Below the pieces are notes generated by a model, which was not told the origin of the DNA, searched no databases, and saw nothing but the letters and a program-made list of their open reading frames with translations. Positions 4,381 to 61,706 of a DNA stretch of 64,000 nt are shown one piece after another. The position numbers were made by a program, and so were the translations under genes. The stretch covers positions 3,362-67,361 of the forward strand of contig JAGLUN010000051.1 of the NCBI GenBank assembly GCA_023134705.1. Direction: 5' to 3'. Position 1 is the stretch's first letter. Every line of letters starts with the position of its first letter. The DNA comes from Candidatus Omnitrophota bacterium. Its GTDB lineage: Bacteria; Omnitrophota; Gorgyraeia; Duberdicusellales; 4484-171.

Positions 4381-4640
4381 AATTGATATTACGAGTATCT
4401 AGCATCCAGTATCGAGCTTCGCGTATCGCGTATCGAGCATCGCGTATTGCGTATCGAGTATCTAGCATCGAGGATCCAGGATCCAGGATCGAGGATCTAA
4501 AAGATTGTTCCTCATCTTTCGTCCCTCGTCCAAGTGAACGAAGTGAACGGTCGTCTCTCGTTCCTCGTTTTTCCTGTCCCCTCTCTTCTGTTCTCTAATT
4601 TTTATCTTCTAACGAGCATCTAGGATCAAGGATCTAAAAG
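4381..4640. repeat. Family-A composite intergenic repeat: CGCGTATCG-type octamer array, GATCCAGG/GATCGAGG units, then a CGTCCCTCGTC tract
   Basis: Tandem 8-9 bp units are read directly. The same composite recurs at 5521, 7834, 24496, 51271 and 57420. Confidence 0.8.
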
Positions 4641-4776
4641 GTTACATAAAGTTACTTAAAGTTACATAAGGTTACTTAAAGTTGCTTTAACGTGAAGCAA
4701 CCTTCCCTAACCTTAAGTAACGTTCTCAAAGTAACCTTCTTTAAGTAACCTTATTAGCCATCGACCATTGACTTCC
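4641..4776. repeat. Family-B element: imperfect palindrome built from GTTAC units phased every 10-11 bp, ending in GCCATCGACCATTGACTTCC
   Basis: The left arm is GTTACATAAAGTTACTTAAAGTTACATAAGGTTACTTAAAGTTGC. The centre is TTTAACGTGAAGCAACC. The right arm is the reverse-complement GTAACC units. Confidence 0.8.
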
Positions 4777-4801: not shown

Positions 4802-5143
4802 TTATTTCAAATATTCTTTTATTTTCAGCATTTTATTTTTTATATCCGGGATGTCCCGTAGTACAACTTCTAAAGTTAATTTCAAATCTATGCCGAAATA
4901 TTCATGTATAAGGATATCCCTCATACCGGCAATCTTTTTCCATGGAATCTCCGGATATTTTTCTTTTATGTCATCGGAAATATTCTTAACTGCTTCCCCG
5001 ATAATTTCGATACGGCGAATAACGGAATCCTGAAGCTGGACAGAGCCAAAAAAGTCATTGTCTGTTTTATCCCGCATATACTTTTCAACCAGCTCAATAG
5101 ATTCCAATATATGTTCTATCAATACTTTAACGTCTTTTTTCAT
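4802..5143 (-). CDS. hepT: HepT-like HEPN toxin (DUF86) of a HepT/MntA toxin-antitoxin pair
   Basis: It carries the Rx4HxY motif (RDILIHEY) and is 113 aa. It overlaps the upstream partner by 4 bp. Confidence 0.75.
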
Positions 5144-5427
5144 AAAATAATTTCTTGTTCTTCTAATATCTTTTCTTTAAGGAGGGGGTGAAGAGAAGCG
5201 TAGGTGACGATATCTACTTTTCTCCCCAGTAACTCCTGAAGTTCCAATTTTAAACCTACCAGATCTAATAAACTTTTTTTTTCTCCAAACTCAATAAGCA
5301 AATCAATATCACTTTCCTTTGTGATTTCGTTTCTTACAACCGAACCAAAAAGGGCGGCTTTTTTTACATTATGCTTTTTCAGTATTTTGTGAAAAACCTT
5401 TTTTATTTCATCAATCTGGATATCCAT
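5140..5427 (-). CDS. mntA: MntA-like minimal nucleotidyltransferase antitoxin
   Basis: It carries [17 protein letters not shown] (the GS...DxD nucleotidyltransferase motif). It is 95 aa and translationally coupled to hepT. Confidence 0.75.
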
Positions 5428-5636
5428 AAGTAGATTTGCTAAGGCACCCGTGAATAATAATGAAACAACTTAGTCCGATTATATAATAGCTTTATGTGCT
5501 TGTCAATAAAACCAGCGTTTTCTATTCGCGTATCGCATATCGAGGATCTAACAGATTATTCCTCCTCTCTCGTCCTTCATCTCTATATTCTTTACGAGTA
5601 TCGAGCATCGAGGATCTAGCATCAAGGATCTAAAAG

Positions 5637-5672
5637 GTTACATAAAGTTGCATAAAGTTACATAAGGTTGCG
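5637..5672. repeat. Family-B forward arm (GGTTACATAAAGTTGCATAAAGTTACATAAGGTTGCG) on the left of the four-helix-bundle gene
   Basis: It has the same phased GTTAC units as 4641..4690. The matching reverse arm lies at 6108..6225, on the other side of the gene. Confidence 0.7.
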
Positions 5673-6128
5673 TTTTTTTCGCAGCTTTGCGCCGGGGACT
5701 TTCCATGTTCCTTCCCGCTCCATCTTATACAAAGATTTAAGATATTGTCCAGTCATATAAGTCGCGCTTTGAAATAATTTCGAAAATGCGTCGAATTCTT
5801 TTTTGCTAATCAATCCGTCATCTTTGCAATCTTCAACATCGCCGCTTAATTCTTCTAAAGAACCCAGACTAATTCTAATGCTATGGATATATTCACCTAG
5901 AGTTCCTTTTCTATATCCCTCCCGTATATTTTGTTTTGCGCTTCTTGCGGCATCTCTCATTTGCGAAATCAGTCTTAGATGTATTGTTGAAAATCTTTTC
6001 GTTATTTTATGAATGAACTTACGTATTTGATAAATATCCTGATAAAATTTTAGCTTTTCATAGGCCAGAGTTTCCCGTCTTTCGTGTATTCTTTCGTCCA
6101 TTTCCTCTCTAACCTTCCCTAACCTCAA
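5658..6128 (-). CDS. Four-helix-bundle protein of the 23S rRNA intervening-sequence-associated family
   Basis: It carries ARSAKQNIREGYRKGT and SIRISLGSLEEL, the family core motifs (compare SxxNIAEG ... SxxExxxxL). It is 156 aa. Confidence 0.65.
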   Translation of the reverse strand: MRLGKVREEMDERIHERRETLAYEKLKFYQDIYQIRKFIHKITKRFSTIHLRLISQMRDAARSAKQNIREGYRKGTLGEYIHSIRISLGSLEELSGDVEDCKDDGLISKKEFDAFSKLFQSATYMTGQYLKSLYKMEREGTWKVPGAKLRKKRNLM

Positions 6129-6225
6129 GTAACTTTCTTAACGTAACCCTCTCAACGTAACCTTCTCTAACTTTAAGTAACTTTCTCAATGTACCCTTCC
6201 CCATGTAACCTTATGTACCCTTCCC
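6108..6225. repeat. Family-B reverse arm (GTAACC/TAACC units) on the right of the four-helix-bundle gene
   Basis: The sequence AACCTTCCCTAACCTCAAGTAACTTTCTTAACGTAACCCTCTCAACGTAACCTTCTCTAAC is nearly identical to 7783..7830 and 53880..53960. Confidence 0.75.
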
Positions 6226-6860
6226 TATCTAATGCGATAGCCCTCTACTATCTTCTCGAATTTTTTTTGAACACAAGAACGAATTCTTAAATTGGTTATT
6301 TTCCTTATCCATCCTTTCGCGTTCTTTAAATGAAATTGCTCTGAAAAATGCAGCTCAGGAAAATATCCAAACTGTTTTTTTTTACGGCAAGACAAATACA
6401 GGCTGTCAATTAAGGCCTTTTCAGGCTCAGCGATTAAGAATTCACCTTTTCCTTTAGACCAACAGAACCCGTCAAAGAATGAGGGGGCAATACGATGAAA
6501 AGAAAACACGCCTATTTTTGTTGATATAACTTTTGTATGAACCAGGGATGCGAGAGTAATTACTTGAGGTATTTGTTCAACTATTCCATAAAGATGTAGA
6601 GCACTCACAAAAGAAACATATGCCCTATGCCGGGGAAGTAGAAAAGGGATAATATTATAAGGGCTTACATATTTATCCCCCTTCTCATACCACAGGCCCC
6701 TATAAACTTTTACAAGAACACTCTCTTTTTCCAAATTATTCAAGGCCTGCGTTACAACAGACAAAGATTTACCGGAAAGGGCAGCGATTTCACGCGTCGT
6801 AAAAACTTTTCGGCCTAACTGCTTAATAAACTTTAAAACGGAACTTCTACGTTTTTCCAT
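6225..6860 (-). CDS. abiEi: AbiEi-like antitoxin/transcriptional regulator (N-terminal wHTH)
   Basis: It sits immediately downstream of an AbiEii-type nucleotidyltransferase and overlaps it. It has an N-terminal wHTH-like segment and is 211 aa. Confidence 0.5.
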   Translation of the reverse strand: MEKRRSSVLKFIKQLGRKVFTTREIAALSGKSLSVVTQALNNLEKESVLVKVYRGLWYEKGDKYVSPYNIIPFLLPRHRAYVSFVSALHLYGIVEQIPQVITLASLVHTKVISTKIGVFSFHRIAPSFFDGFCWSKGKGEFLIAEPEKALIDSLYLSCRKKKQFGYFPELHFSEQFHLKNAKGWIRKITNLRIRSCVQKKFEKIVEGYRIR

Positions 6861-7623
6861 TTATCAACTCATCTATAAAATTACACACCTTCAGTTTAAT
6901 CCCATCCCATACAGAACGCGTATCATACACATTCTGATCTTCGACAGAGAGATAAGAAACCACACTATCACGAAACTGTTCAAAACTGATTTCAAGTACA
7001 TTCTGATACGCCTTTTTTAAAATATTCTTTTCAATAAGTAATGCCCGGCTCTTGTCATATTGTGAACTCAAAAGATGAAGGTCAAAAACATCTCTTGCTT
7101 GAAGAAAAGCCCTTGTAACTAATGCTTTTATCTTTTGGCTCACCATAGAATCCGCGTCATAGTGAGGAACTAAAATCGGCGGCAGCTTATAGGCCCGCAA
7201 TACAGTATCCATAACTTCTTCTACCCGTACGCCTTCTTTAAAACCTCTCCTTGAAAATTCAATTTTAATAAATAAATCCTCTCCGCTTGCGGTTATCAAA
7301 TGGACTTTAAATGGCTGGGTAGTTTGTGTTTGCTTTGCTTTTTTTATATCCGGAGGAATTATCTTTTCAATACCAAAAGGTCTAAGTGTGTCCTGAAATG
7401 ATTGGGAATTAAGGACATTCATTACCATTTCAATAAGAGTATCAACGGCTACCCTTTCTACATCCAAATCTATATCTTCTGAGTAACGAATACTGTGAAA
7501 GAAAAAGCGCAAATTTACTCCACCCTTTAAAACATAGGTATCGGGTTTGAGCTTTCTCCCAAGCCATCGTAAGAATTCTAAATGAAATACCTCTCTTACT
7601 TGTAACGGGCTGTTTATTAGCAT
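6847..7623 (-). CDS. abiEii: AbiEii/AbiGii-family nucleotidyltransferase toxin (DUF1814)
   Basis: It carries LKGGVNLRFFFHSIRYSEDIDLDVE, matching the family signature LKGGTxL...R.SEDIDL. It is 258 aa. Confidence 0.7.
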   Translation of the reverse strand: MLINSPLQVREVFHLEFLRWLGRKLKPDTYVLKGGVNLRFFFHSIRYSEDIDLDVERVAVDTLIEMVMNVLNSQSFQDTLRPFGIEKIIPPDIKKAKQTQTTQPFKVHLITASGEDLFIKIEFSRRGFKEGVRVEEVMDTVLRAYKLPPILVPHYDADSMVSQKIKALVTRAFLQARDVFDLHLLSSQYDKSRALLIEKNILKKAYQNVLEISFEQFRDSVVSYLSVEDQNVYDTRSVWDGIKLKVCNFIDELINGKT

Positions 7624-7690
7624 TATAATTATGTATTATAGTTTAGTTATAACTAAATTTCAATACATTACTAAAAAGGTTAGATAAACG

Positions 7691-7833
7691 ATTACATAAA
7701 GTTATTTAAAGTTGCATTAACGTTACGTAACCTTCTTAACGCAACCTTCCCTAACCTTAAGTAACCTTCTCTAAGTAGCCTTCTCTACGTAACCTTCCCT
7801 AACCTCAAGTAACTTTCTTAACGTAACCTTCTC
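7691..7833. repeat. Family-B palindromic element with a short forward arm and a long reverse arm
   Basis: The sequence runs ATTACATAAAGTTATTTAAAGTTGCATTAACGTTACGTAACC, followed by phased GTAACC units. Confidence 0.8.
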
Positions 7834-7925
7834 ATCTCACTTGTATCTCTATATTCTTTGCGAGTATCTAGCATCGAGCATCCAGCATCTAAAGTGTTAT
7901 CCCTCATCTTTCGTCCCTCGTCTCT
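7834..7925. repeat. Family-A repeat segment (GCATCGAGCATCCAGCATC units, then CGTCCCTCGTC)
   Basis: It has the same units as 4396..4560. Confidence 0.7.
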
Positions 7926-17839: not shown

Positions 17840-18035
17840 ATAGGGGTTTTTGTTAGTATTTTTTTATACACGCAGATTTTTTCGTATCGCGTATCGAGTA
17901 TCGCGTATTGCGTAAAGAAAGTCGATAGTTAATAGCTGATAGTGGGAAAAGTAAGGCGTTAAATAGTTTTACGAGTTAGCGAGTTGAACGAGTTTAACGA
18001 GTTTTAATGAAAAGGATAGAGGTTTTTTATGAAAA

Positions 18036-18140
18036 ATTGTAAAGTTTTTCGAATGTGTAAAGGAAAGCGACAGATTTCGTGGAAATATGCTTTGTGAAAT
18101 GTACTTCCTGAAATACATGGAAATATAGTTGAAATAAATT
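18036..18140 (-). promoter_or_regulatory. Upstream activator-like region with direct repeats of the TGAAATA/GGAAATA type; candidate enhancer for the sigma-54 activator
   Basis: It reads GGAAATATGCTTTGTGAAATGTACTTCCTGAAATACATGGAAATATAGTTGAAATAAAT. The same block is present at 19413..19630, 20690..20740 and 58040..58125. Confidence 0.45.
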
Positions 18141-18192
18141 GTCTGCCATAGGCTCTTCCAAAGGCAGATCCTCCTCATTATGGTGGGAAAAT

Positions 18193-18208
18193 CACGGGCA
18201 TGCCCGTG
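18193..18208. promoter_or_regulatory. Perfect 16-bp palindrome CACGGGCATGCCCGTG
   Basis: It is read directly. An identical copy lies at 19654..19669, at the same relative position in the next intergenic module. Confidence 0.5.
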
Positions 18209-18296
18209 GGGTGTTCCATTAACTTAATTCCCCCTTCTCCCTCGCGCCTATTTCTAAATTGGGATTTGTTTGTGAAGTATGAAGTGTAGAACACAA

Positions 18297-18336
18297 ACAA
18301 AAAGACAGAAGCTTTTATGCTTCTGTCTTTTTTATC
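18297..18336 (-). terminator. Intrinsic terminator hairpin (GACAGAAGC / GCTTCTGTC stem, flanking T/A runs) after the PEP-CTERM gene 18379..19134
   Basis: A 9-bp perfect stem with a 6-nt loop is flanked by T6 on the plus strand and by TTTTTGTTTGT on the minus-strand transcript. Confidence 0.6.
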
Positions 18337-18340
18337 TATT

Positions 18341-18395
18341 CTTCACGCGATACGCAACATGCGATATGCGATACGCATTTACGCGATACGTTTTC
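18341..18395. repeat. Family-A CGCGATACG array overlapping the last codons of the PEP-CTERM gene
   Basis: It reads CACGCGATACGCAACATGCGATATGCGATACGCATTTACGCGATACG. Confidence 0.7.
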
Positions 18396-19134
18396 TCCGC
18401 CTGAATCCCGCACCAGCTAATCCTATAAGCCCGGATCCAAGAAGAAGTATGGTTGCCGGTTCGGGGATAGGAGCTGTGTCGGCATCGTGGGAATATGGAG
18501 CGAAAACATCCTTCGACGTCCCGTTATCTTTATAGTAGGTGCCTGTAAGGTCAAAATGGATAAAAGAAAATATGGGGTTATAACTTATATCGTAAACCTG
18601 AATCTGTCCTAAGTCTTGTCCGTCACTTTCTGCAGGATTCCCCGGATTATAAGACAGGTCATAATTGTAAACAGTTGTCATTACGGCAAGAGGTGTAAAT
18701 AAAAAATCGTCGAGCTCCATAGAGGCATAATAAGTGAGATATATTCCATGAGGAGAAGTCCCTTCAGGTTGTCCGAAAGTTTCAAAATCATCTTTAAAGA
18801 GCTTTATGCCACCAATAGTGATAATCGGTGTTGTCTCTTCTTCAGTTGTCTCTTCTTCATAGGAAAGGTATTGATTTTCAAGGAGTGATATATGAAGTTT
18901 GACCTCGGTTATCTCAGTAAGAGTCCCATTTTTAGAGGCGCCCACGGCCCAGAGTTCAAAAGGATTATCGGTAGTAATCCATGTGTCTTCGCTTTTATCG
19001 GGAAACCAAGGGCTAACTTCATAATAAGTAGAATTAGGAATATAGAGTTGCAGTGCAGAAACAGCAAAAGCCGGAGTTGTAATGCCAAATACTAAAAATA
19101 GAAGCATTAAACCTTTCAACATACTTTTTTTCAT
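18379..19134 (-). CDS. Secreted PEP-CTERM-anchored protein
   Basis: It has the signal peptide MKKSMLKGLMLLFLVFGITTPAFA. Its C-terminus is IPEPATILLLGSGLIGLAGAGFRRRKRIA. Confidence 0.8.
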   Translation of the reverse strand: MKKSMLKGLMLLFLVFGITTPAFAVSALQLYIPNSTYYEVSPWFPDKSEDTWITTDNPFELWAVGASKNGTLTEITEVKLHISLLENQYLSYEEETTEEETTPIITIGGIKLFKDDFETFGQPEGTSPHGIYLTYYASMELDDFLFTPLAVMTTVYNYDLSYNPGNPAESDGQDLGQIQVYDISYNPIFSFIHFDLTGTYYKDNGTSKDVFAPYSHDADTAPIPEPATILLLGSGLIGLAGAGFRRRKRIA

Positions 19135-19210: not shown

Positions 19211-19756
19211 AAGGGGAATTTTGGGGGATGTTTTTTATAAACGATGCTTGATCCTCGATGCTGGATGCTAGATACTAGTAAAGAATAGAGATAAAAGTGA
19301 GATGATAAGGACGAGGGATGAGAAAAGCAAAAATTAGACTCAAGACTTAAGACTCAATAGAGAAAGTCATAAGGTCATAAAGCCAAAAGTTGCCGAAATT
19401 TGGGGGAAAATTGTAAAACTTTTCGAATGTGTAAAGGAAACCGACATGTTTCGGGGAAATATGCTTTGTGAAATGTACTTCCTGAAATACATGGAAATAT
19501 AGTTGAAATGAATAGAGATATATAGAAATATATAGTCCGCCAAGGCGGATCCGCCTCCGGCGGAAAATATATTGAAATATGGTTGAAATAAATTGTCTGC
19601 TATAGGCTTTTCCAAACAAAGGCAGATTCTTCTCGTATGTATGGCGGGAAGATCACGGGCATGCCCGTGGGATGTTCCATTAACTTAATTCCCCTCTCCC
19701 TCGCGCCTATTTTTAAATTGGGATTTTGTTTGTGAAGTATGTAGTGTGTGACATAA

Positions 19757-19795
19757 ACAAAAAGGCAGGAGCTTTTATGCTTCTGCCTTTTTTAT
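19757..19795 (-). terminator. Intrinsic terminator hairpin (AGGCAGGAGC / GCTTCTGCCT) after the PEP-CTERM gene 19857..20567
   Basis: It is a near-perfect stem with a following T-run. It is homologous to the hairpin at 18297..18336. Confidence 0.55.
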
Positions 19796-19856
19796 CTATT
19801 CTTCACGCATTAAGCGATGACCGAAGGGAATCCTGAGTATCCCCGACGGATACGCG

Positions 19857-20567
19857 TTACGAGGTATGTTTTTTTTGCCTGAATCCCGCGCCAATCAATC
19901 CCAAAAGCCCGGATCCAAGAAGAAGAATGGTTGCGGGTTCGGGGATGGGCGGAGTGCCTCTATATTCCAATCGAAAGGGAGTGTCTATATCAGCATGCCA
20001 GTTCCAACGATTATTACGTTCGTCTAGGTGATAGAATCCATCTCCGGTAGCAACCTTTGGTAAACGAAAGTCCGTATCGTCTGTTGTTGTGGCGGCATTT
20101 GAACCATTTAATCCGTAAAAACTAAGCCAATACTCACCGGAAGGAAGACCTAATGGAGTTGGGAGTGTGAATTCAATATCGTAAATTTTGTCAATAGTGG
20201 AAAAAGGGGCTATAGAACTTTGTAAAGCAGTGTAGTCACCAGGTATGAGTATTTGTTCATAAAAAGGAGAGGAAGTATCTGGCTTTCCAGAGCTAGAGTC
20301 GTTGTTAAAAATTGAAAATGTAAATTTTTCGAGTGAATAGTTTATAGTTATGCCTTCTTGAAACCAAACGGTATCTATTGTTGAATCCTGAGGAAGTGTG
20401 AAATCGTCGTAAATGCGCCACTTAGAAGGTGTAAAAGCTTCAGATGAGCGAAGACCTCCAGCAGATGTTCCGATGCCATTATCATAAATAATAATTGCGT
20501 CAGCCGTGCATGTGGAAATTATAATTACAAACATAGTTATAAAGAATATTAATATTCTTTTTCCCAT
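19857..20567 (-). CDS. Secreted PEP-CTERM-anchored protein
   Basis: It has a signal peptide. Its C-terminus is PIPEPATILLLGSGLLGLIGAGFRQKKHTS. Confidence 0.8.
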   Translation of the reverse strand: MGKRILIFFITMFVIIISTCTADAIIIYDNGIGTSAGGLRSSEAFTPSKWRIYDDFTLPQDSTIDTVWFQEGITINYSLEKFTFSIFNNDSSSGKPDTSSPFYEQILIPGDYTALQSSIAPFSTIDKIYDIEFTLPTPLGLPSGEYWLSFYGLNGSNAATTTDDTDFRLPKVATGDGFYHLDERNNRWNWHADIDTPFRLEYRGTPPIPEPATILLLGSGLLGLIGAGFRQKKHTS

Positions 20568-20642: not shown

Positions 20643-20741
20643 ATGAGGATGGATAGACGCAAATTATGAGATACGGTGAGATTGATAGCAATAATATAGT
20701 GGAAATATATAGAAATAGGTTGAAATATAGTTGAAATACAA

Positions 20742-20868
20742 GGTTACTTAAGGTTAGGGAAGGTTACGTAGGAAAGTTACATTGAGAAGGTTGCTTAAAG
20801 AAGGTTACTTCACGTCAACGTAACCTTAAGTAACTTTAAGTAACTTTATGTAACCTTATTTTAATTAA
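20742..20868. repeat. Family-B palindromic element in the opposite orientation
   Basis: It reads AAGGTTACTTAAGGTTAGGGAAGGTTACGTAGG...CACGTCAACGTAACCTTAAGTAACTTTAAGTAACTTTATGTAACC. Confidence 0.75.
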
Positions 20869-20931
20869 CTTCTGCAATCTTTTTTATCTATTTTTCCCGC
20901 GATACACAATACGCGATACGCGTTACGTTTT

Positions 20932-24495: not shown

Positions 24496-24700
24496 GATTT
24501 TTTCGTATGCTTATCGCGTATCGAGTATCGCGTATCGAGCATCCAGTATCTAAAAGCTCGTCCCTCGTCTCTTCGTCCCTCATTTTTCGTTTTTCCTGTC
24601 CTCTATTCTCTGATTTCTGTCTTCCAACGAGTATCCAGCATCGAGCATCTAGCATCTAAAGTTGGCCATCGGTTCCTTCGCCCATTGACTTTCTTTTAAC
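24496..24700. repeat. Family-A composite repeat (CGCGTATCGAG array, CGTCCCTCGTC tract, GCATCGAGCATCTAGCATC units, then a variant of the GCCATCG...CCATTGAC terminus)
   Basis: It is read directly and is collinear with 4396..4776. Confidence 0.8.
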
Positions 24701-47347: not shown

Positions 47348-48448
47348 TTATGACTTTGCGCCCTTGCGACTTTCTCTATTGAGTCTTATGTCTTCTGTTT
47401 TCTGTACTTTGTCCTTCACAACCTGCATTCCTTCCTGCAATCGTTGCCCATACATCTTTTTATAGTAATTAAGGTACTCCCCTGACTTAATTTTCATCCA
47501 CCAGCCTTTATTCTGCCTATACCACTCAATTGTTTTTTCTATGCCTTCTTCGAACTTGTATTTAAGCTGCCAGCCTAATTCATTCTTAATTTTAGTTATA
47601 TCCATAGCATACCGTCTATCATGGCCAAGCCTATCTTTTACATAAGTAATTAAGGATTTAGGTTTATTCAAATGTTTTAATATTATTTTTGCTATATTTA
47701 TATTAGTTTCCTCTGAATTTCCTCCGGCATTATAGACTTCTCCTATCCTGCCTTTATGCAAAACAACATCTATTGCCCGGCAAAAATCTTCGGTATAAAT
47801 CCAGTCTCTAACGTTTAAACCGTCTCCGTATAATGGAATGGGTTGATTATCTAAAACATTTGAAATAGTTAAGGGGATATATTTCTCCGGGAATTGATAA
47901 GGCCCGTAGTTATTTGTGCAGCGGACAATTGTTGCCGGAAATTTGAATGTTTCCACATAAGACCGGACTAACAAATCTGAACTTGCTTTTGATGCTGAAT
48001 AAGGACTATTTGGTTGTATTGGCGTTAACTCAGTAAATACCCCTGTCGGACCAAGAGAACCATATACTTCATCAGTCGAAATATGGATAAATTTCTCAAT
48101 ATTGTTTTCTTTTGCCGCTTCTAATAAAACATGAGTGCCAACGATATTTGTTTTTATAAAAGGAATGGAATCTGTAATAGACCGGTCAACGTGTGATTCA
48201 GCGGCAAAATGAACTATAAATGAAATTCCTTCTTCTTTTATTAGATTACTTACCAATTTTCTATCCTCAATCCTTCCCTTAATAAATTTATAATTTGGAT
48301 TACCTTCTATGCTTTTTAAATTTTCTAAGTTACCGGCGTAAGTCAATGCATCTAAATTAATTATCTTATAATCATAATTGTTAAGCATATAATGAATGAA
48401 ATTCGAGCCTATAAATCCACAGCCACCGGTTATTAATATATTTTTCAT
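47348..48448 (-). CDS. rfbB: dTDP-glucose 4,6-dehydratase
   Basis: It carries ILITGGCGFIGSNF and YSASKASSD. It has the full-length RfbB architecture. Confidence 0.85.
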   Translation of the reverse strand: MKNILITGGCGFIGSNFIHYMLNNYDYKIINLDALTYAGNLENLKSIEGNPNYKFIKGRIEDRKLVSNLIKEEGISFIVHFAAESHVDRSITDSIPFIKTNIVGTHVLLEAAKENNIEKFIHISTDEVYGSLGPTGVFTELTPIQPNSPYSASKASSDLLVRSYVETFKFPATIVRCTNNYGPYQFPEKYIPLTISNVLDNQPIPLYGDGLNVRDWIYTEDFCRAIDVVLHKGRIGEVYNAGGNSEETNINIAKIILKHLNKPKSLITYVKDRLGHDRRYAMDITKIKNELGWQLKYKFEEGIEKTIEWYRQNKGWWMKIKSGEYLNYYKKMYGQRLQEGMQVVKDKVQKTEDIRLNRESRKGAKS

Positions 48449-48452
48449 AGTA

Positions 48453-48500
48453 TATTTGATTACACAGATTATTGCTAGATTACACAGATTTCTGTTCGAT
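48453..48500. repeat. Array of GATTACACAGAT-type units (left flank of the GxxExxY gene)
   Basis: It reads GATTACACAGATTATTGCTAGATTACACAGATTTCTGTTCGATTGCTCAGATT. Confidence 0.7.
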
Positions 48501-48508
48501 TGCTCAGA

Positions 48509-48889
48509 TTAAAGAACAAACCTTTTAACTCCACAACTTTTATTGCCGAAATTAACTAATAATCCGACTTTCAAATTAGATGCTCTTAAATAAGAAAGTA
48601 TCTGGTATTTAAAAACATCGGGAATATTGCCTGTTAAGGCTTTAACTTCAACTATAACTTTATCTTCTATGATTAAGTCTAATCTAAGTCTGCCAACATT
48701 CTCTCCTTGATACGAAATCGTAAAACTTTTCTCAGTCTGATACCTTAAGCCTTCCTGTTTTAAAGCTATCTCTAAGGCATTATGGTATATACGCTCATTA
48801 AATCCCGGCCCTAATTCAGAATGAACCCTATAACAACAACCTATTATTTTTTCTGTAAGTGAATCATTATCTTTCATCTGTGTAATCAT
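48509..48889 (-). CDS. GxxExxY-family protein (PD-(D/E)xK-like small selfish/insert gene)
   Basis: It carries LGPGFNERIYHNAL (G..E..Y) and the family end ...GVKRFVL. It is 126 aa. Confidence 0.65.
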   Translation of the reverse strand: MITQMKDNDSLTEKIIGCCYRVHSELGPGFNERIYHNALEIALKQEGLRYQTEKSFTISYQGENVGRLRLDLIIEDKVIVEVKALTGNIPDVFKYQILSYLRASNLKVGLLVNFGNKSCGVKRFVL

Positions 48890-48965
48890 TTTTCATAATC
48901 TGCGTAATCATTTATTATAATCTGTGCCATCATTTTTTATTATCTGTGTAATCTTCCTTTTAATC
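48890..48965. repeat. Array of ATCTGTGTAATC-type units (right flank, inverted relative to the left flank)
   Basis: It reads ATAATCTGCGTAATCATTTATTATAATCTGTGCCATCATTTTTTATTATCTGTGTAATCTTCCTTTTAATCTGTGTAATCA. Confidence 0.7.
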
Positions 48966-49850
48966 TGTGTAATCATTTATTCTAATAAATTTATCGGTAG
49001 ATTCCTCCCATTTTGGGATAGCGATATCTAATGTTTTTTTGATTTTTAAATTCGACATAGCGGAAAACATCGGCCTCTTTGCTTTTGTTTTAAAAGTATC
49101 TATTGAAACGGGAACAATTATATTTTCAGTACCCATTCTATTAATAAAATATCTGGCTAATTCATGTCTTGAAGCATAGCCGGTATTAGTTAGATGGAAT
49201 AAGCCCGTTATGCCTTTTTCTAAACTTAATAATGTAACATTTACAATATTTTCTGTATATGTAGGAACTGAGACTTCATCAGATGTTATTTTAAGCACTT
49301 TAGATTTTTCAGCCCACTGTCTTAACTTGTATAAAAAGTTTTGTTTCCCCTTTCCGATAACCCAACTTAATCTGAATATCAAAAAATCAGATAAACACTC
49401 TTTGATTGCCTGTTCTCCCTCTAATTTGCTTTTACCATATACATTAAGAGGATTTGTCATGTCTTCTTCTACATATAAATCCTGTTTTTGTCCATCAAAC
49501 ACATAGTCTGAACTATAGTGGACTAAAAATATTTTATTTTCTTTACAGATTCTTGCTAAATTCTCGACAGCCTGACTATTTACTAAATGTGCTAATTTTG
49601 AATTTTCTTCGGCTTCATCAACTAGATTATATGCGGCGCAATTAATAATGACATTGGGTTTAGCTTCATTTATTATTGTTCTTGTCTTTGTGAAATCAGT
49701 AATATCCCATTCTTCTTCCGATGGAGCAGCAAAATCAATTTTTCTTTCATGGAAAATTTTCTGAAATTCTTTACTTAATTGCCCTGAAGCGCCTGAAATT
49801 AAAAATTTATTATTCTTCATCGTAAATAAAGCTTTTTTTAATGTTATCAA
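48960..49850 (-). CDS. rfbD: dTDP-4-dehydrorhamnose reductase
   Basis: It has a Rossmann N-terminus (LISGASGQL), is 296 aa and lies in the rfb gene order. Confidence 0.8.
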   Translation of the reverse strand: MITLKKALFTMKNNKFLISGASGQLSKEFQKIFHERKIDFAAPSEEEWDITDFTKTRTIINEAKPNVIINCAAYNLVDEAEENSKLAHLVNSQAVENLARICKENKIFLVHYSSDYVFDGQKQDLYVEEDMTNPLNVYGKSKLEGEQAIKECLSDFLIFRLSWVIGKGKQNFLYKLRQWAEKSKVLKITSDEVSVPTYTENIVNVTLLSLEKGITGLFHLTNTGYASRHELARYFINRMGTENIIVPVSIDTFKTKAKRPMFSAMSNLKIKKTLDIAIPKWEESTDKFIRINDYTD

Positions 49851-50376
49851 AAGAAGGATAAACTGAATCTTTTTCTGATAAAATAGGACTTTCTACCGGC
49901 CAATCAATCTTTAAGGTATCGTCATTCCAAATTATCCCTCTCTCGTGCTGAGGTGAATAAATATTCGTGCATTTATATATAACTTCTGTTATCTCAGATA
50001 ATGTACAAAATCCGTGGGCAAATCCTGAGGGGATATATAGCATTTTTTTATTTTTTGAAGATAGATTAACCCCTATCCATTTACCATAAGTTGGAGACCC
50101 TGTTCTTATATCTACGGCTACATCAAAGATTTCTCCGGAAATAACTTGAATGGTTTTACCTTGAGCAAAGGGGGAAATCTGATAATGTAAACCCCTTAAA
50201 ACTCCTTTTTGAGTTGATTTTGAATAATTATCCTGAATAAATCTTTCTTTTATTCCAAATTCTATAAAATCTGAATACTTATAGGTTTCCATAAAGAAAC
50301 CTCTGCCATCAGGAAAGACTTTAGGTTCAATTAAAACAAGTCCGGGAATATCTAATTTTTTAAAACTAAACGGCAT
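49810..50376 (-). CDS. rfbC: dTDP-4-dehydrorhamnose 3,5-epimerase
   Basis: It carries [11 protein letters not shown] and is 188 aa with a cupin fold. Confidence 0.85.
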
Positions 50377-51259
50377 AACTACATCCCTTATTCATATTTT
50401 CCTTAATAATTCTCAACAAGTACTCACCGTATCCGGCGTTTACATTCTTAGCTATAATTTGTAATTGGTTTTGGTTGATAAAGCCCATCTTATACGCTAT
50501 CTCTTCAATACATCCGATTTTTAGGCCTTGCCGTTCTTCAATGGTTTTAATAAACATTGAGGCATCAAGCAATGAATTATGAGTCCCTGTATCAAGCCAG
50601 GCGTATCCTCTGCCTAATAATTTGACTTTTAACTGCTTCCTCTGTAAATAGGTATTGTTAACATCAGTAATTTCTAACTCTCCTCTCTGGGAAGGCTTGA
50701 TTTTCTTTGCTATTTTTACAACCGAGTTATCATAAAAATATAATCCGGTAATCGCCCAGTTGGACTTAGATTTTTTAGGTTTTTCTTCTATAGAAATTAC
50801 ATTATTGTTATCATCAAACTCTACTACACCGTAACGTTGGGGGTCTTTTACGTAATACCCAAAAACAGTAGCCCCTTGTTTCTGTGAAACTGTTTCCTTT
50901 AAAACCTCTGAAATACCGTGGCCAAAAAATATATTATCTCCCAACACTAAACACACTGAATTCTTACCAATAAATTCTTCTCCTATAATGAATGCCTCGG
51001 CTAAACCTTTGGGTTCTTTCTGTTGGGCGTATTGAATGTTTAAGCCAAAATCTTCTCCGCTATTTAATAAATCCGTAAATCTCGGCAAAGCCTCAAGCGT
51101 TGAGATAATAAGTATATCCCTGATTCCTGCCAGCATTAATACCGATAATGGATAATAAATCATCGGTTTGTCATAAACAGGCAAAAGCTGCTTACAAACG
51201 GCTTTTGTTACCGGATATAATCTTGTTGCTTTACCGCCTGCTAATATTATTCCTTTCAT
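50366..51259 (-). CDS. rfbA: Glucose-1-phosphate thymidylyltransferase
   Basis: It carries [39 protein letters not shown]. Confidence 0.9.
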
Positions 51260-51270
51260 TCTTTAGCTTC

Positions 51271-51420
51271 TCTCTATTATCGTATATCGTATCGCGTATT
51301 GCGTATCGAGTATCGAATATCTATCATCTACTCTCCATTTTCTGTTCTCGCCCTACATTTCTCGTCCTTCGTCTTTTCGTCTCTCGTCCCTCGTTTCTTA
51401 TCCCCCTTCACTTCCGTCCA
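51271..51420. repeat. Family-A composite repeat
   Basis: It has the CGTATCGCGTATTGCGTATCGAGTATCG array, then the TCGTCC/CTCGTCCCTCGT tract. Confidence 0.8.
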
Positions 51421-53740: not shown

Positions 53741-53990
53741 TTGCGTATCGTGTGAAGAAAGGTTACATAAAGTTACTTAAAGTTAAGGTTACTTAAAGTT
53801 ACATAAGGTTACTTAAAGTTGCTTAAGGTTGCGTTAACGTGAAGTAACCTTCTCAAAGCAACCTTCTCTAACCTTCCCTAACCTCAGGTAACTTTCCCAA
53901 AGTAACCTTCTCTGCGTAACCTTCTTAATGTAACCTTCTTAATGTAACCTTCTCTAAGTACCTTATCAGCTATCGACCATCGACTTCCTT
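53741..53990. repeat. Family-B element (the largest copy) with the terminus CAGCTATCGACCATCGACTTCC
   Basis: It reads AAGGTTACATAAAGTTACTTAAAGTTAAGGTTACTTAAAGTTACATAAGGTTACTTAAAGTTGCTTAAGGTTGCGTTAACGTGAAGTAACC, followed by nine reverse GTAACC/TAACC units. Confidence 0.85.
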
Positions 53991-55342: not shown

Positions 55343-55510
55343 CTCTCACCTTTTTTTATTTAACCACATTTTTTTTGACAGGATTAACTGGATTAACAAG
55401 ATAAAATTTCATATTTAACCACAAGATTACACTAGATCTTGATACTTTAAAATCTTCTTAACAATTTAATCGCGGATTATTTTTTTACCACGAAGTTCAC
55501 GAAGGTTTTA

Positions 55511-55957
55511 TCATAGAACAAATCTTTTTATTCCTAATTTTAATTTTTCAACGTTAAAATTAAGCAATAACCCAACTTTAATTTTTGCCAATTTCATATA
55601 AGTTAGTATTTGAGCTTCGTGTATGCCTAAAATTTTATCAACGCTTTTTAATTCTATAATAAGCTTATTTGCTATAAGAATATCGATACGATATCCACAA
55701 TCTAATTTAATCCCGTTATATTCTATCGGTAAAGAACATTGTAGAGTAAACGGTATATCTGATAGTTTTAATTCATGAGCTAAACATTGTTCATAAGCCG
55801 ATTCAAGTAAGCCTGGTCCAAGAGCCCGGTGTACTTTTATGGCACAACCTATAACTTTATTTGATAATTCATCAAATTTTACTTCGTGTCCTTCGTGTTT
55901 AAAATATTTATTTACCGGCACTTCTTCCATACTCATCTTCCAGCCTCTGGATATCAT
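55511..55957 (-). CDS. GxxExxY-family protein (second copy)
   Basis: It carries LGPGLLESAYEQCL and the end GIKRFVL. The start is probably internal (M8 or M10), so the overlap with manC may be shorter. Confidence 0.6.
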   Translation of the reverse strand: MISRGWKMSMEEVPVNKYFKHEGHEVKFDELSNKVIGCAIKVHRALGPGLLESAYEQCLAHELKLSDIPFTLQCSLPIEYNGIKLDCGYRIDILIANKLIIELKSVDKILGIHEAQILTYMKLAKIKVGLLLNFNVEKLKLGIKRFVL

Positions 55958-57368: not shown

Positions 57369-57620
57369 ATATCGTCAATGGTTAATAGTCGATAGTCAAT
57401 GGTCGATAGTCTATGGGGAGAAAGTAACGCGTATTGCGTATCCTTCGGGGATACTCAGGATTCTCTCCTTCGACTGTGCTCAGGACAAGTTTCGGTCATC
57501 GCATATCGAGCATTCAGCATCCAAACTTTCTGACTTCTGTCCTCTGACTTCTGAAGCCTGTCTCCTCCCACTTCTCTATCGAGCATCTAAACTTTCTATT
57601 TACTGCCTTCTTCCCTCTGA
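57361..57620. repeat. Family-A composite repeat with GTCGATAGTCAATGG units
   Basis: It has TCGTCAATGGTTAATAGTCGATAGTCAATGGTCGATAGTCTATGG, then CGTATTGCGTATCC and GAGCATTCAGCATCC/GAGCATCTAAAC units. Confidence 0.75.
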
Positions 57621-57678
57621 AGTTTTAGGCCTTGAGTCTTGGGTCTTGGGAAGAAGGCTTTTTCTCCCCTGTCCTGCT

Positions 57679-58039: not shown

Positions 58040-58140
58040 ATTGAAATATGCTTCGCGAAATATACTTCGTGAAATATACTTCATGAAATATATAGATATA
58101 GATAGAAATAAATGGAAATATGTTGAAATAAATAGTCCGC
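58040..58140 (-). promoter_or_regulatory. GAAATAT direct-repeat block (14-bp period) upstream of the small PEP-CTERM gene, homologous to the blocks at 18036 and 19413
   Basis: It reads CGCGAAATATACTTCGTGAAATATACTTCATGAAATATATAG...GGAAATATGTTGAAATAAATAGTCCGCCATTGGCGG. Confidence 0.45.
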
Positions 58141-58179: not shown

Positions 58180-58578
58180 TTAATCTTCATTTTTGGCCTT
58201 AGTTTTTGATTTGTATGTTGAACTTATAAAGTTATTTAATTTGATTGATAATTTCTTGCTCAATTTTTCCATTTTGTTAAAAATATCTTTATCGATAATC
58301 TTTCGTTCATGGAGTAAAGATAACCAATGTTCACACGATTCACTTAAAGACGCACGGCTGGTATAATAGAACTTAATCCTATCTAAGAAGTGATATCTTT
58401 TATACCCTTCAGCAATGTTTGCCCCTACAGAATCGATAGATTCAATAAATTGATCTCCCATAATCTTCTTTTCATGCCAATTCAATGCGCTATAGATTTC
58501 CCATGCAATTCCTGATAATTCTCTGGATATCCTGTAAACCTCTAAATCCTTCAGTTCTATATATTTCTTTATATCCAT
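58180..58578 (-). CDS. Four-helix-bundle protein (23S IVS-associated family), second copy
   Basis: It carries SVGANIAEGYKRYH and YYTSRASLSESCEHW. It is 132 aa. Confidence 0.65.
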   Translation of the reverse strand: MDIKKYIELKDLEVYRISRELSGIAWEIYSALNWHEKKIMGDQFIESIDSVGANIAEGYKRYHFLDRIKFYYTSRASLSESCEHWLSLLHERKIIDKDIFNKMEKLSKKLSIKLNNFISSTYKSKTKAKNED

Positions 58579-60590: not shown

Positions 60591-60800
60591 CTCAGGATTC
60601 CCTTCGGTCATTTCGTATTGCGTATCGCGTATCGCGTATTGCGTTATAAATTCCTTTTACTAACTTTATACCTTTTTTCCAAACTCTTAAATCTCTAAAA
60701 TATTTTATTTTGTCTTCCATTTTGTCATATTTGTGTTTTGTACGCGATACGCGATACTCGTTACGCGATACGCTATTATTGCTTTCATAAATTTCGTATT
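60591..60800. repeat. Family-A arrays in inverted orientation bracketing a 5' fragment (about 60650..60740) of a four-helix-bundle gene
   Basis: 60611..60645 reads CGTATTGCGTATCGCGTATCGCGTATTGCG. 60745..60790 reads GTACGCGATACGCGATACTCGTTACGCGATACG. 60650..60740 is about 90 percent identical to 61092..61180. Confidence 0.75.
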
Positions 60801-60803
60801 GCG

Positions 60804-61163
60804 TTATAATTTTTTTGCTAAATTAGTAATCATTCTACAAATATGGTCGATTATTTCTGTTAATTCGTTTTCTTTGTCTTCTTTTATGTAAGACAATTCT
60901 TTTGTAATTATCACCTGGGTTTCTAATTCCGCGCAGGAACCTAAAGATATATTGAGAAATTGTTTGTATTCTTTGTTATGTTTTCGTCTAAAACCCTCTG
61001 CTATGTTAGAAGGGATAGAAATGGCACATCTTCTCATTTGAGAAGAAAGTCCATATTGTTCTTCTTTAGGGAAACTTTTCGTTGTTTTATAAATTTCTTT
61101 TACTAGCTCTATACCTTTTTTCCAAACTCTTAAATCTCTAAAACGTCTTATTTTGTCTTCCAT
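60804..61163 (-). CDS. Four-helix-bundle protein (23S IVS-associated family), third copy
   Basis: It carries RRCAISIPSNIAEGFRRKH and NISLGSCAELETQ. It is 119 aa. Confidence 0.7.
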   Translation of the reverse strand: MEDKIRRFRDLRVWKKGIELVKEIYKTTKSFPKEEQYGLSSQMRRCAISIPSNIAEGFRRKHNKEYKQFLNISLGSCAELETQVIITKELSYIKEDKENELTEIIDHICRMITNLAKKL

Positions 61164-61214
61164 ATTGTCATATTTGTTTGTACGCGATACGCAATACGCG
61201 TTACGCGATACGAA

Positions 61215-61706
61215 TCACGCGATACGCGTTACAATATTTTTAAAGAATATAATTGCTCCCACAATTACCGCGTTTATTGAGGCTAAGAGGACCCCGGCAG
61301 CGGCAATGTCTTTAACCAGTTTAACCGAAGGATGATATTTCTTGCCGTTTAAAAAGTCTAAGCTTAACTCTAAAGCCGTGTTAATAATTTCACAAGCAAT
61401 AACAAAGATCATGGCTAAAAACAAAATTGCCATTTCTAAATAAGAAACCTTAATCAAAAGACTTAAGACAATGACCGATAATCCCGTAATAATATGTATA
61501 CGGATGTTCCTTTGGCTTTTTAAAGCGAATTTAAGCCCTTCCCAGGCACAAACAAAGCTGCTCAATAAATTTCTTCGTTTATTAAAAATATTTAAGGGAT
61601 AATTGTTAACCTCTAATGAAGAAGCATTAGCGGTTAAGGGATTAGGTCCGGAATGATTATTTTTTACAACTTCATCCATCCCTTGACCAAGATTAATCTC
61701 CGGCAT
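61215..61706 (-). CDS. dgkA: Diacylglycerol/undecaprenol kinase (DgkA family)
   Basis: It carries EIINTALELSLDF and VKDIAAAGVLLASINAVIVG, and has three transmembrane helices. The start is assigned at the internal Met to avoid the upstream overlap. The ORF could extend to 61772. Confidence 0.55.
   Translation of the reverse strand: MPEINLGQGMDEVVKNNHSGPNPLTANASSLEVNNYPLNIFNKRRNLLSSFVCAWEGLKFALKSQRNIRIHIITGLSVIVLSLLIKVSYLEMAILFLAMIFVIACEIINTALELSLDFLNGKKYHPSVKLVKDIAAAGVLLASINAVIVGAIIFFKNIVTRIA

Follow-up and report, generated by a model that had tools for sequence, protein, structure and literature searches.

Small open reading frames (ORFs) enclosed by inverted repeats are known from the intervening sequences of 23S rRNA in Leptospira and Coxiella, in which an S23p/four-helix-bundle ORF is bounded by a 28-bp inverted-repeat stem that is cut by RNase III; a mobile-element origin was proposed for them but not shown, and has been an open question since the 1990s (PMC4990558). 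Here we describe a cassette with a similar outline in a 64,000-nucleotide stretch of DNA from a Candidatus Omnitrophota bacterium (assembly GCA_023134705.1, contig JAGLUN010000051.1, positions 3,362 to 67,361; hereafter the window, itself part of a 75-kb metagenome scaffold), where a gene of the GxxExxY family, bracketed by mirrored arrays of a short unit, lies between the rhamnose-pathway genes rfbD and rfbB. GxxExxY proteins form a large family whose function is listed as unknown and whose name is seldom mentioned in the literature searched; searches of that literature gave no description of the bracketed architecture, and one in a source outside it is possible. Other known systems share parts of this design. 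In REPtrons, which Nunvar et al. in 2010 and Bertels & Rainey in 2011 are said to have described, RAYT genes are reportedly flanked by inverted REP/REPIN sequences. Tn7 and Mu carry several transposase-binding sites per inverted end, and miniature inverted-repeat transposable element (MITE) derivatives exist. Homing endonuclease genes that stand free between genes of phages lack inverted repeats at their flanks and home to one cognate site, and integron cassettes are promoter-less single ORFs, co-oriented and externally transcribed, with imperfect inverted repeats at their boundary.

The coding strand of the gene block is the minus strand, on which the order is rfbA, rfbC, rfbD, a five-unit array, the GxxExxY gene, a three-unit inverted array and rfbB, and the four rfb genes all match NCBIfam equivalogs. 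The elements of the locus, in the direction of the genes, are as follows.

50366-51259, minus strand: rfbA (NCBIfam equivalog)
48960..49850, minus strand: rfbD, dTDP-4-dehydrorhamnose reductase, the upstream host gene, whose final five codons derive from the cassette
48963..48974, minus strand: upstream unit 1, GATTACACAGAT, within the rfbD 3' end and followed by the rfbD stop codon TAA (48960-48962)
48942..48953, minus strand: upstream unit 2, GATTACACAGAT (pattern search)
48920..48931, minus strand: upstream unit 3, degenerate, GATGGCACAGAT (pattern search)
48898..48909, minus strand: upstream unit 4, GATTACGCAGAT (pattern search)
48876..48887, minus strand: upstream unit 5, GATTACACAGAT, whose last two bases (AT) form with a G the start codon 48877-48875
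48509..48877, minus strand: GxxExxY gene, 122 aa plus stop (126 aa if the upstream ATG at 48889 is used)
48498..48509, plus strand: downstream unit 1, inverted and degenerate, GATTGCTCAGAT on the plus strand, with one base in common with the TAA stop of the GxxExxY gene
48478..48489, plus strand: downstream unit 2, inverted, GATTACACAGAT on the plus strand (pattern search)
48458..48469, plus strand: downstream unit 3, inverted, ending 9 nt ahead of the rfbB ATG
47348..48448, minus strand: rfbB, dTDP-glucose 4,6-dehydratase, the downstream host gene (NCBIfam equivalog)

A pattern search for GATTACACAGAT with at most two mismatches gave 14 matches in the 64 kb, against 5.7 expected from shuffles; eight of the 14, including five of the six exact copies in the window, fall within 48458-48974, and on the plus strand they form three forward and five reverse-complement units around the gene. 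Tandem Repeats Finder (TRF) reports 2.7 copies of period 20 at 48458-48511 and 5.3 copies of period 22 at 48862-48977. In gene orientation the upstream array has a period of 21-22 nt and the inverted downstream array one of 20 nt, and this is the only cassette copy with the GATTACACAGAT unit type in the window. A preliminary description of the locus had placed the arrays at 48453..48500 and 48890..48965, around a GxxExxY gene of 126 aa. Its account of the arrays holds, with coordinates that fall slightly short at the outer and inner ends, and so does the family assignment (TIGR04256, 132.7 bits against a cut-off of 35, 7.8e-39; PF13366, 127.5 bits against a cut-off of 22, 4.2e-37); the 126-aa ORF begins with an ATG overlapping a unit, whereas the model of an identical protein filed at NCBI under Candidatus Omnitrophica begins with the next ATG, at 48877, and has 122 aa. 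This start codon is embedded in the innermost upstream unit, a geometry repeated in most related loci. Inside the cassette no promoter or terminator signal rose above shuffled background, and the window gave nothing from Rfam at gathering thresholds or from a tRNA scan. The GxxExxY protein was found in one other contig only, identical and from the same sample set, and the RfbB of the window was located on its source contig alone.

Comparison with the rfb loci of relatives establishes that the block between rfbD and rfbB is a discrete insertion. The two closest RfbB homologues with recoverable context, L110 and L109, were compared with the window itself. In L110 (RfbB 85% identical) there is no cassette, the rfbD stop codon overlaps the rfbB start codon (ATGA), and RfbD ends in KFVKIFREDIL*, where that of the window ends in INDYTD*. 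In L109 (RfbB 87% identical) a decayed cassette occupies the same site and RfbD ends in RKNGYTD*; degenerate units are followed by an 84-aa GxxExxY ORF without its 5' part and then by two inverted units, the first of which, ATCTGAGCAATC, is the unusual variant also present in the window, and a native-looking Shine-Dalgarno sequence lies between these units and rfbB. A more distant relative, L083, has rfbA, rfbC, rfbD and rfbB contiguous. The earlier proposal that an insert splits the rfb block is thus borne out by an empty orthologous site in L110 and occupied ones in the window and L109, with an insertion point directly 5' of the rfbB ribosome-binding region. The tree of the three rfb loci is an unresolved trichotomy (RfbB identity 84-87%) of about equidistant lineages, so that gain is indistinguishable from precise loss; as the cassette is intact in the window and decaying in L109, the insertion is common to two lineages.

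Two further observations concern these operons. In other Omnitrophota metagenome-assembled genomes (MAGs), L033 and L049, the same cassette family stands immediately 5' of rfbA, so dTDP-rhamnose operons have been struck at different junctions. The C-terminus of the window RfbB is ~25 aa longer than in its closest homologues (366 vs 337-342 aa), and the extension, at the 3' end of rfbB (47348-47430), is encoded by ACAGAAGAC-like repeats. Such repeats stand at the same position in L109 (L109:2560-2663), followed by the apparent start of a four-helix-bundle gene, a likeness from which the extension may be the remnant of another cassette that was absorbed into the RfbB ORF.

The cassette extends well beyond this operon. 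A clade alignment of the protein, scanned against one genome per species, gave 80 loci, 73 of them with enough flank, under record titles that include Omnitrophota, Ratteibacteria, WOR-3, Nitrospirota, Deltaproteobacteria, Planctomycetia, Elusimicrobia, Atribacteria, Bacteroidota, Clostridia and others; a dozen or more phyla are named, the assignments being the record titles of MAGs, and one surveyed locus lies in a complete genome, that of Velamenicoccus archaeovorus. A forward unit is found within 100 bp upstream in 70 of the 73 loci and an inverted unit downstream in 60, whereas units in the wrong orientation occur upstream in five loci and downstream in six. The preliminary description had named a lack of the inverted-array architecture around other GxxExxY genes as the outcome that would speak against it; both flanking arrays are in fact kept in 59 of the 73 loci. 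In the usual form each side has two units, placed at about -31 and -10 relative to the ATG and at -1 and +19 relative to the stop codon, and L109 carries fewer units than the window copy (5 + 3). Cassette proteins are 56-73% identical across phyla, the closest relatives of the window protein belong to other phyla, and the clade profile matches ~28,000 clusters at 50% identity. The limits of the element emerge from a WOR-3 MAG with two copies, whose likeness (91% over 424 bp) is confined to the stretch between -60 and +96 around the ORF and so indicates an element of about 520 bp; an Omnitrophota MAG likewise has two copies, with 95% identity over 431 bp. Paired copies at different sites within one MAG (L031/L061 and L052/L055) are thus 91-95% identical. 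It is firmly established that the cassette is shared across phyla and that its architecture of mirrored, phased unit arrays is conserved.

Beyond the arrays, a large subset of loci carries two further, outer hairpins. The left one, AGACATCC-loop-GGATGTCT, lies directly 3' of the upstream stop codon, and the right one, GGTATAAT-loop-ATTATACC, abuts the AGGAG (Shine-Dalgarno) sequence of the next gene. Two sets of compensatory changes were seen, attributed to right and left by the hairpin sequences: GGTATAAT/ATTATACC, GGTATAAC/GTTATACC and GGCATAAT/ATTATGCC for the right hairpin, and AGACATCC/GGATGTCT, AAACATCC/GGATGTTT and GGCATCC/GGATGCC for the left. The right-end motif has no further occurrence in the ~650 kb of DNA retrieved. 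The window copy is without both outer hairpins but has extra units.

Derivatives of the cassette were also found. Gene-less elements of the form U-U-D-D stand between genes at other sites of the same contigs, some with both hairpins, and the GxxExxY gene is truncated in L014, L053, L061 and L109. Mini-elements of the GATTACACAGAT family lie at L015:1860-2000, L018:2240-2380, L020:2440-2600 and 6840-6980, L051:710-930 and 7650-7890, L072:3160-3280 and L005:4366-4560; some keep the left hairpin, the right hairpin and the Shine-Dalgarno sequence, and in several the ORF is gone almost exactly between the inner units.

The protein encoded by the cassette is predicted to be a Cas4/RecB-like PD-(D/E)xK nuclease. 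Residues G25, E28, Y31, D67, E77, K79, Q92 and Y96 are invariant in both the clade alignment and a divergent alignment, and E28, D67, E77, K79, Q92 and Y96 show no variation even among family members that are only 35-58% identical; these six we take to be the RecB/Cas4-type motif set, including QxxxY. An AlphaFold2 model built with the clade alignment as input reached a predicted local distance difference test (pLDDT) score of 85, and a fold search with it returned a Cas4/RecB-like PD-(D/E)xK fold, so that the nuclease fold suggested earlier is now backed by both model and fold search. The protein had no sequence match to any solved structure and no match to a phage family of known function, no known transposase family was among its profile hits, and the PADLOC defence models returned no family at E <= 0.01 for either GxxExxY protein or for two four-helix-bundle proteins. 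Codon positions 1, 2 and 3 are 71, 83 and 45% identical (28 loci, gap-free ORFs), a pattern of strong purifying selection on the protein. Many family representatives (P0241, P0244, P0246-P0248 and others) are 250-295 aa long with two tandem GxxExxY domains, which hints at a dimeric working unit.

The same bracket design recurs with other units and other genes, in the window and outside it. In the window these are the following.

55489..55957, minus strand: second cassette, with a GxxExxY gene at 55511-55957 (1.3e-44) and a CACGAAG bracket
5658-6128, minus strand: PF05635 four-helix-bundle gene, units GGTTAC/GTAACC
58180-58578, minus strand: PF05635 four-helix-bundle gene, GATATATC-type units
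60804-61163, minus strand: PF05635 four-helix-bundle gene, units CGTATCG/TACGCGA

The second GxxExxY gene had been noticed before at 55511..55957 and is confirmed by its family match. Its unit CACGAAG occurs twice upstream (minus strand, 55882-55897, translated HEGHE) and twice inverted downstream (plus strand, 55489-55504), so that the cassette holds four of the seven CACGAAG copies of the window. The unit type tracks the protein clade: other clades use CACGAAG, CACGGAA, CGCTAAT, CGCAAAG or CACAGAGGA. In Bacteroides finegoldii (L111:1440-1920) radA is followed by three contiguous CACAGAGGA-type units, the GxxExxY gene, three inverted units and the gene of a FAD-dependent protein, and in Treponema saccharophilum (L112:1430-1900) the GxxExxY gene has a single inverted repeat, CACGGATTCG. 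Each PF05635 gene of the window (there are three, and one matches bAvd as well) has a unit of its own, repeated in inverted arrays on either side, and the same holds for five PF05635-like genes from other loci, of which one is a weak match. At ~60645-60740, between CGTATCG and TACGCGA arrays, stands an apparent 5' end of a second copy of the 60804-61163 gene (MEDKIKYFRDLRVWKKG...), which looks like a decayed cassette beside an intact one.

Cassettes are co-oriented with both neighbours in 51 of 57 loci, where 73% would be expected from the 85% background co-orientation in the same loci (p = 0.002), and their downstream neighbours include rpsD, phoU, rimO, rfbA (twice), pyrR, recR and gcvH. The family is seldom carried by plasmids, phages or viruses: it was met in 7 plasmid records, most of them large replicons, in a single phage genome and in one viral contig. 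The cassettes pass between phyla and duplicate within genomes; they also leave unit pairs without a gene behind and decay where they stand. The preliminary description had suggested a small transposable or homing cassette; a discrete insertion, copies 91-95% identical at different sites of one MAG and gene-less derivatives agree with the first part, as do the inverted repeats at both ends in 59 of 73 loci, a hallmark of insertion-sequence and MITE-type elements, whereas the absence of target-site duplications does not. The homing part fares worse: the cassettes occupy many unrelated sites, with their repeats within the element and not spanning an empty target, so that a classical homing endonuclease gene does not fit.

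How the cassette compares with the systems described above can now be stated. With the 23S rRNA intervening sequences it has in common a small ORF of unknown function within inverted repeats that lies in the transcript of a host, has a sporadic distribution and was presumably acquired horizontally, and members of the same family (PF05635) occur in the window with the same bracket design. However, the host of the cassette is an mRNA operon and not an rRNA helix, with no Rfam match in the window; its ORF encodes a predicted PD-(D/E)xK nuclease; and in place of a continuous 28-bp stem it has phased arrays with a 12-nt core, non-complementary spacers and no wobble signature. REPtrons resemble it in their single nuclease-type gene, short inverted flanking repeats, gene-less inverted doublets and a repeat type that tracks the protein clade, but RAYTs are HUH/Y1 enzymes whereas the cassette protein belongs to PF13366 with a predicted Cas4/RecB-like fold, REPs are hairpins whereas the units are not, and RAYTs are mainly vertical whereas the cassette is common to several phyla at 56-73% protein identity. 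Tn7, Mu and MITEs share with it multiple phased, mirror-oriented sites per end, gene-less derivatives and several copies at different sites; the cassette differs in having neither a target-site duplication nor a DDE or other known transposase, in its size of only ~0.5 kb, in its strong co-orientation with host genes and in the non-inverted hairpins that lie outside the arrays in many copies. Free-standing homing endonucleases are likewise small promoter-less nuclease genes between co-oriented host genes, whereas the cassette sites are many and unrelated and the family is nearly absent from phage records. Integron cassettes, finally, are similar as promoter-less single ORFs with co-orientation and boundary inverted repeats, but here there is no attC-type single site and there are no cassette arrays at one platform, the copies being scattered singly or a few kb apart.

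What the units do is best approached through what constrains them. A logo of 277 units gives the 12-13-nt consensus tGATTACAcaGATTaaa, with 95-100% conservation at the GATT..C..GATT positions and a variable middle; unit pairwise identity is 0.86, or 0.93 without two of the variable middle positions (28 loci), against 0.83 for codon position 2, where detection of the units by similarity to the consensus biases the measured conservation somewhat upward, a point against the reading as DNA sites. The unit period is 18-24 bp, with means of 21.1 and 20.6, which brings the GATT cores back about once per helical turn, and upstream and downstream units have lineage-specific variants in common. As to pairing, neither nested nor crossed unit pairing was preferred (7 vs 8 wins, 32 ties), unit mismatches were G·U in 32-36 and A·C in 33-34 cases, complementarity between spacers was no higher inside loci than across them (P = 0.57), and duplex energy did not differ between sense and antisense (p = 0.18). 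Conserved cores, unpaired spacers, the lack of a wobble or strand signal and a period of ~21 bp together favour phased protein-recognition sites in duplex DNA over a plain RNA stem.

Our best explanation as a whole, held with belief and doubt in equal measure, is an insertion-derived nuclease cassette whose units are phased DNA recognition sites for its own dimeric nuclease. By this account 48458..48974 would have no part in the rhamnose pathway and would be a promoter-less 122-aa nuclease gene, bracketed exactly by tGATTACAcaGATTaaa-type arrays (forward upstream, inverted downstream) and probably co-transcribed with the rfb genes, that would have landed directly 5' of the rfbB ribosome-binding region with loss of the ancestral rfbD/rfbB ATGA overlap. 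Most likely the units serve as phased sites on double-stranded DNA that are recognized by their sequence, with GATT cores at about 0, 9, 21 and 30 bp, and what binds them is most likely the nuclease of the cassette itself, as a dimer; it would occupy the two flanks in mirrored orientation, in the fashion of transposon ends, and the binding would serve propagation of the element through excision or integration. That the units are DNA recognition sites, probably for the dimeric nuclease and in the service of propagation, we hold with moderate confidence; that the nuclease binds them and that binding drives excision or integration we infer. A bolder version, which we put forward tentatively and consider possible but doubtful, is that GxxExxY cassettes are a new class of ~0.5-kb minimal autonomous mobile elements, in which a dimer of a 120-aa Cas4/RecB-like nuclease would be the sole protein, reading phased GATT-type arrays at both ends and excising or inserting just 5' of ribosome-binding sites in operons without target duplication. 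Several findings weigh against this interpretation as a mobile nuclease element. We know of no established precedent for a 120-aa PD-(D/E)xK protein as sole transposase. Target-site duplications, which had been proposed as a check at the outer edges, were not visible at any copy examined, be it the window copy, full copies or mini-elements, beyond AT-rich chance matches, and the empty site of L110 holds no duplicated segment. One protein occurs identically in 24 contigs and always between fakA and degV, another has one fixed context in 8 contigs, and the contigs come from different samples, which implies that current mobility is low; as syntenic copies also persist between species (L006/L011, L063/L065), movement is rare at best. 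Non-inverted outer hairpins are conserved outside the arrays in many loci, so the arrays are not always terminal. Lastly, unrelated four-helix-bundle genes with the same design suggest either a role that needs inverted symmetry alone or a shared trans-acting machinery, and the B. finegoldii units would form a 26-bp stem in which two of the three mismatches are G·U in the sense RNA.

These last points lead to an alternative that we judge unlikely, though it is the strongest of the rivals, in which the arrays act in RNA like the terminal inverted repeats of 23S rRNA intervening sequences and make the insertion harmless to the operon: upstream and downstream units would pair in the polycistronic rfb transcript with the nuclease ORF looped out, RNase III would cut the paired region, and in relatives the outer hairpins would protect the two fresh mRNA ends, the 3' one on the upstream side and the 5' one on the downstream side. 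The placement of the left hairpin after the upstream stop codon and of the right one against the downstream Shine-Dalgarno sequence fits this, as do the compensatory changes in both, but the window copy has neither hairpin, and a hand count within the AGACATCC family gave more A·C than G·U for the left one, though from too small a number of cases for a decision. For 48445-48985 (minus strand) the predicted fold encloses the ORF through pairs between three units on the upstream and three on the downstream side (z = -6.7), as is expected of any inverted repeat; the spacers, being non-complementary, leave 12-bp helices with internal loops of roughly 8 and 10 nt, whereas RNase III substrates are usually about 20 bp. 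The near-continuous 26-bp duplex of the B. finegoldii flanks, with its G·U pairs in the sense strand, speaks for RNA, but in the GATTACACAGAT clade G·U and A·C are about equally frequent, which leaves no sign of wobble, folding energy does not differ between the strands, and no pairing register is preferred. Unit sequences that differ completely among cassette lineages while the inverted symmetry is retained, co-orientation with neighbours, and the same bracket design around genes of PF05635, the 23S rRNA intervening-sequence family, in the same genomes would all suit pairing, whereas the cores are conserved in sequence and do not drift by compensation. The two roles could be compatible, with arrays for spread and hairpins for tolerance by the operon.

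We consider it more improbable still that the cassette is an immobile, domesticated regulator or host function, with the arrays as operators through which GxxExxY or a host protein would govern its own translation and the flanking operon, and kept for repair, defence or polysaccharide-gene control. Strong purifying selection (codon position 3 at 45% against position 2 at 83% identity), a start codon embedded in a unit, positions fixed within populations, copies that outlast speciation and repeated adjacency to rfb genes (5' of rfbA in L033/L049, rfbD/rfbB in the window) are all consistent with a host role, but the neighbours are otherwise unrelated housekeeping genes (rpsD, phoU, rimO, pyrR, recR, gcvH, fakA/degV), the cassette decays in place in L109, L061, L014 and L053, gene-less derivatives are scattered over the same contigs, the nearest kin of the window protein are in other phyla, and known defence families gave no match. 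There is, finally, a very slim chance that the arrays are a by-product of a repeat-prone genome, made by slippage, without a role and inverted by coincidence. TRF lists 113 array rows for the 64 kb, arrays of 7-, 10- or 14-mers are present in most intergenic gaps, and the five and three units of the window, against the usual two and two and the fewer in L109, show that copy number drifts; yet unit, orientation, spacing and ATG/TAA overlap recur in 59 of 73 loci, in unrelated genomes of different base composition, with core positions 95-100% conserved, and we rejected the by-product reading on these grounds.

The window is rich in other repeats. Short tandem arrays fill most intergenic gaps above 50 bp, among them the 7-mers CGTATCG, CGAGCAT and CTCGTCC, the 10-mers GTTACATAAA and GAAATAxATA and the 14-mer GTAACCTTCTCAAC, and composite intergenic repeat modules recur in both orientations. 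Examples of array-rich gaps from TRF are listed below.

4392-4760, 5528-5657, 6110-6222, 7690-7890, 17883-18004, 19243-19357, 20693-20927: array-rich gaps
24505-24658, 51278-51398, 53759-53968, 57384-57650, 58042-58135, 60614-60773, 61181-61232: further array-rich gaps

Gene-less facing array pairs lie at 4641-4760, 7690-7834, 20740-20860 and 53759-53968, with AAGGTTACATAA-type repeats of period 10 on one arm, GTAACCTTCTCAAC-type repeats of period 14 on the other and a conserved centre, TTAACGTGAAG, in common; one of the four is in the opposite orientation. Solitary unit-like sequences at 2637-2657 and 55420-55440 (AACCACAAGATTACACAGATT and AACCACAAGATTACACTAGAT) have a longer stretch around the unit in common, and the latter lies close on the downstream side of the second GxxExxY cassette. 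Each of two neighbouring PEP-CTERM genes (18379-19134 and 19857-20567) has a non-coding segment after it (18033-18348 and 19407-19808); the segments are 88-93% identical, and both contain the hairpin CACGGGCATGCCCGTG. Between array-rich gaps at 4802-5427 (minus strand) stands a HepT-like RNase and MNT nucleotidyltransferase pair, a toxin-antitoxin module.

Recognizing GxxExxY genes as discrete cassettes with a fixed, conserved anatomy turns a large family of unknown function into a concrete, testable hypothesis, with GATTACACAGATT as the unit form proposed as the GxxExxY recognition sequence; since cultured carriers exist (Bacteroides finegoldii, Treponema saccharophilum), experiments are feasible. 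The cassettes stand between co-directional, mostly housekeeping genes in many phyla, and they alter the ends of host genes, as seen in the replaced RfbD C-terminus and the broken rfbD-rfbB translational coupling; they deserve to be recognized as insertions in genome annotation and in the comparison of polysaccharide loci. The cassette looks like a widespread genetic hitch-hiker, and its design links it to the ORFs of 23S rRNA intervening sequences. If GxxExxY cassettes are indeed minimal autonomous mobile elements and the four-helix-bundle genes behave alike, rRNA intervening sequences would be no more than the visible part of a large hidden mobilome, made up of single-ORF cassettes that are embedded in transcripts across bacterial phyla.

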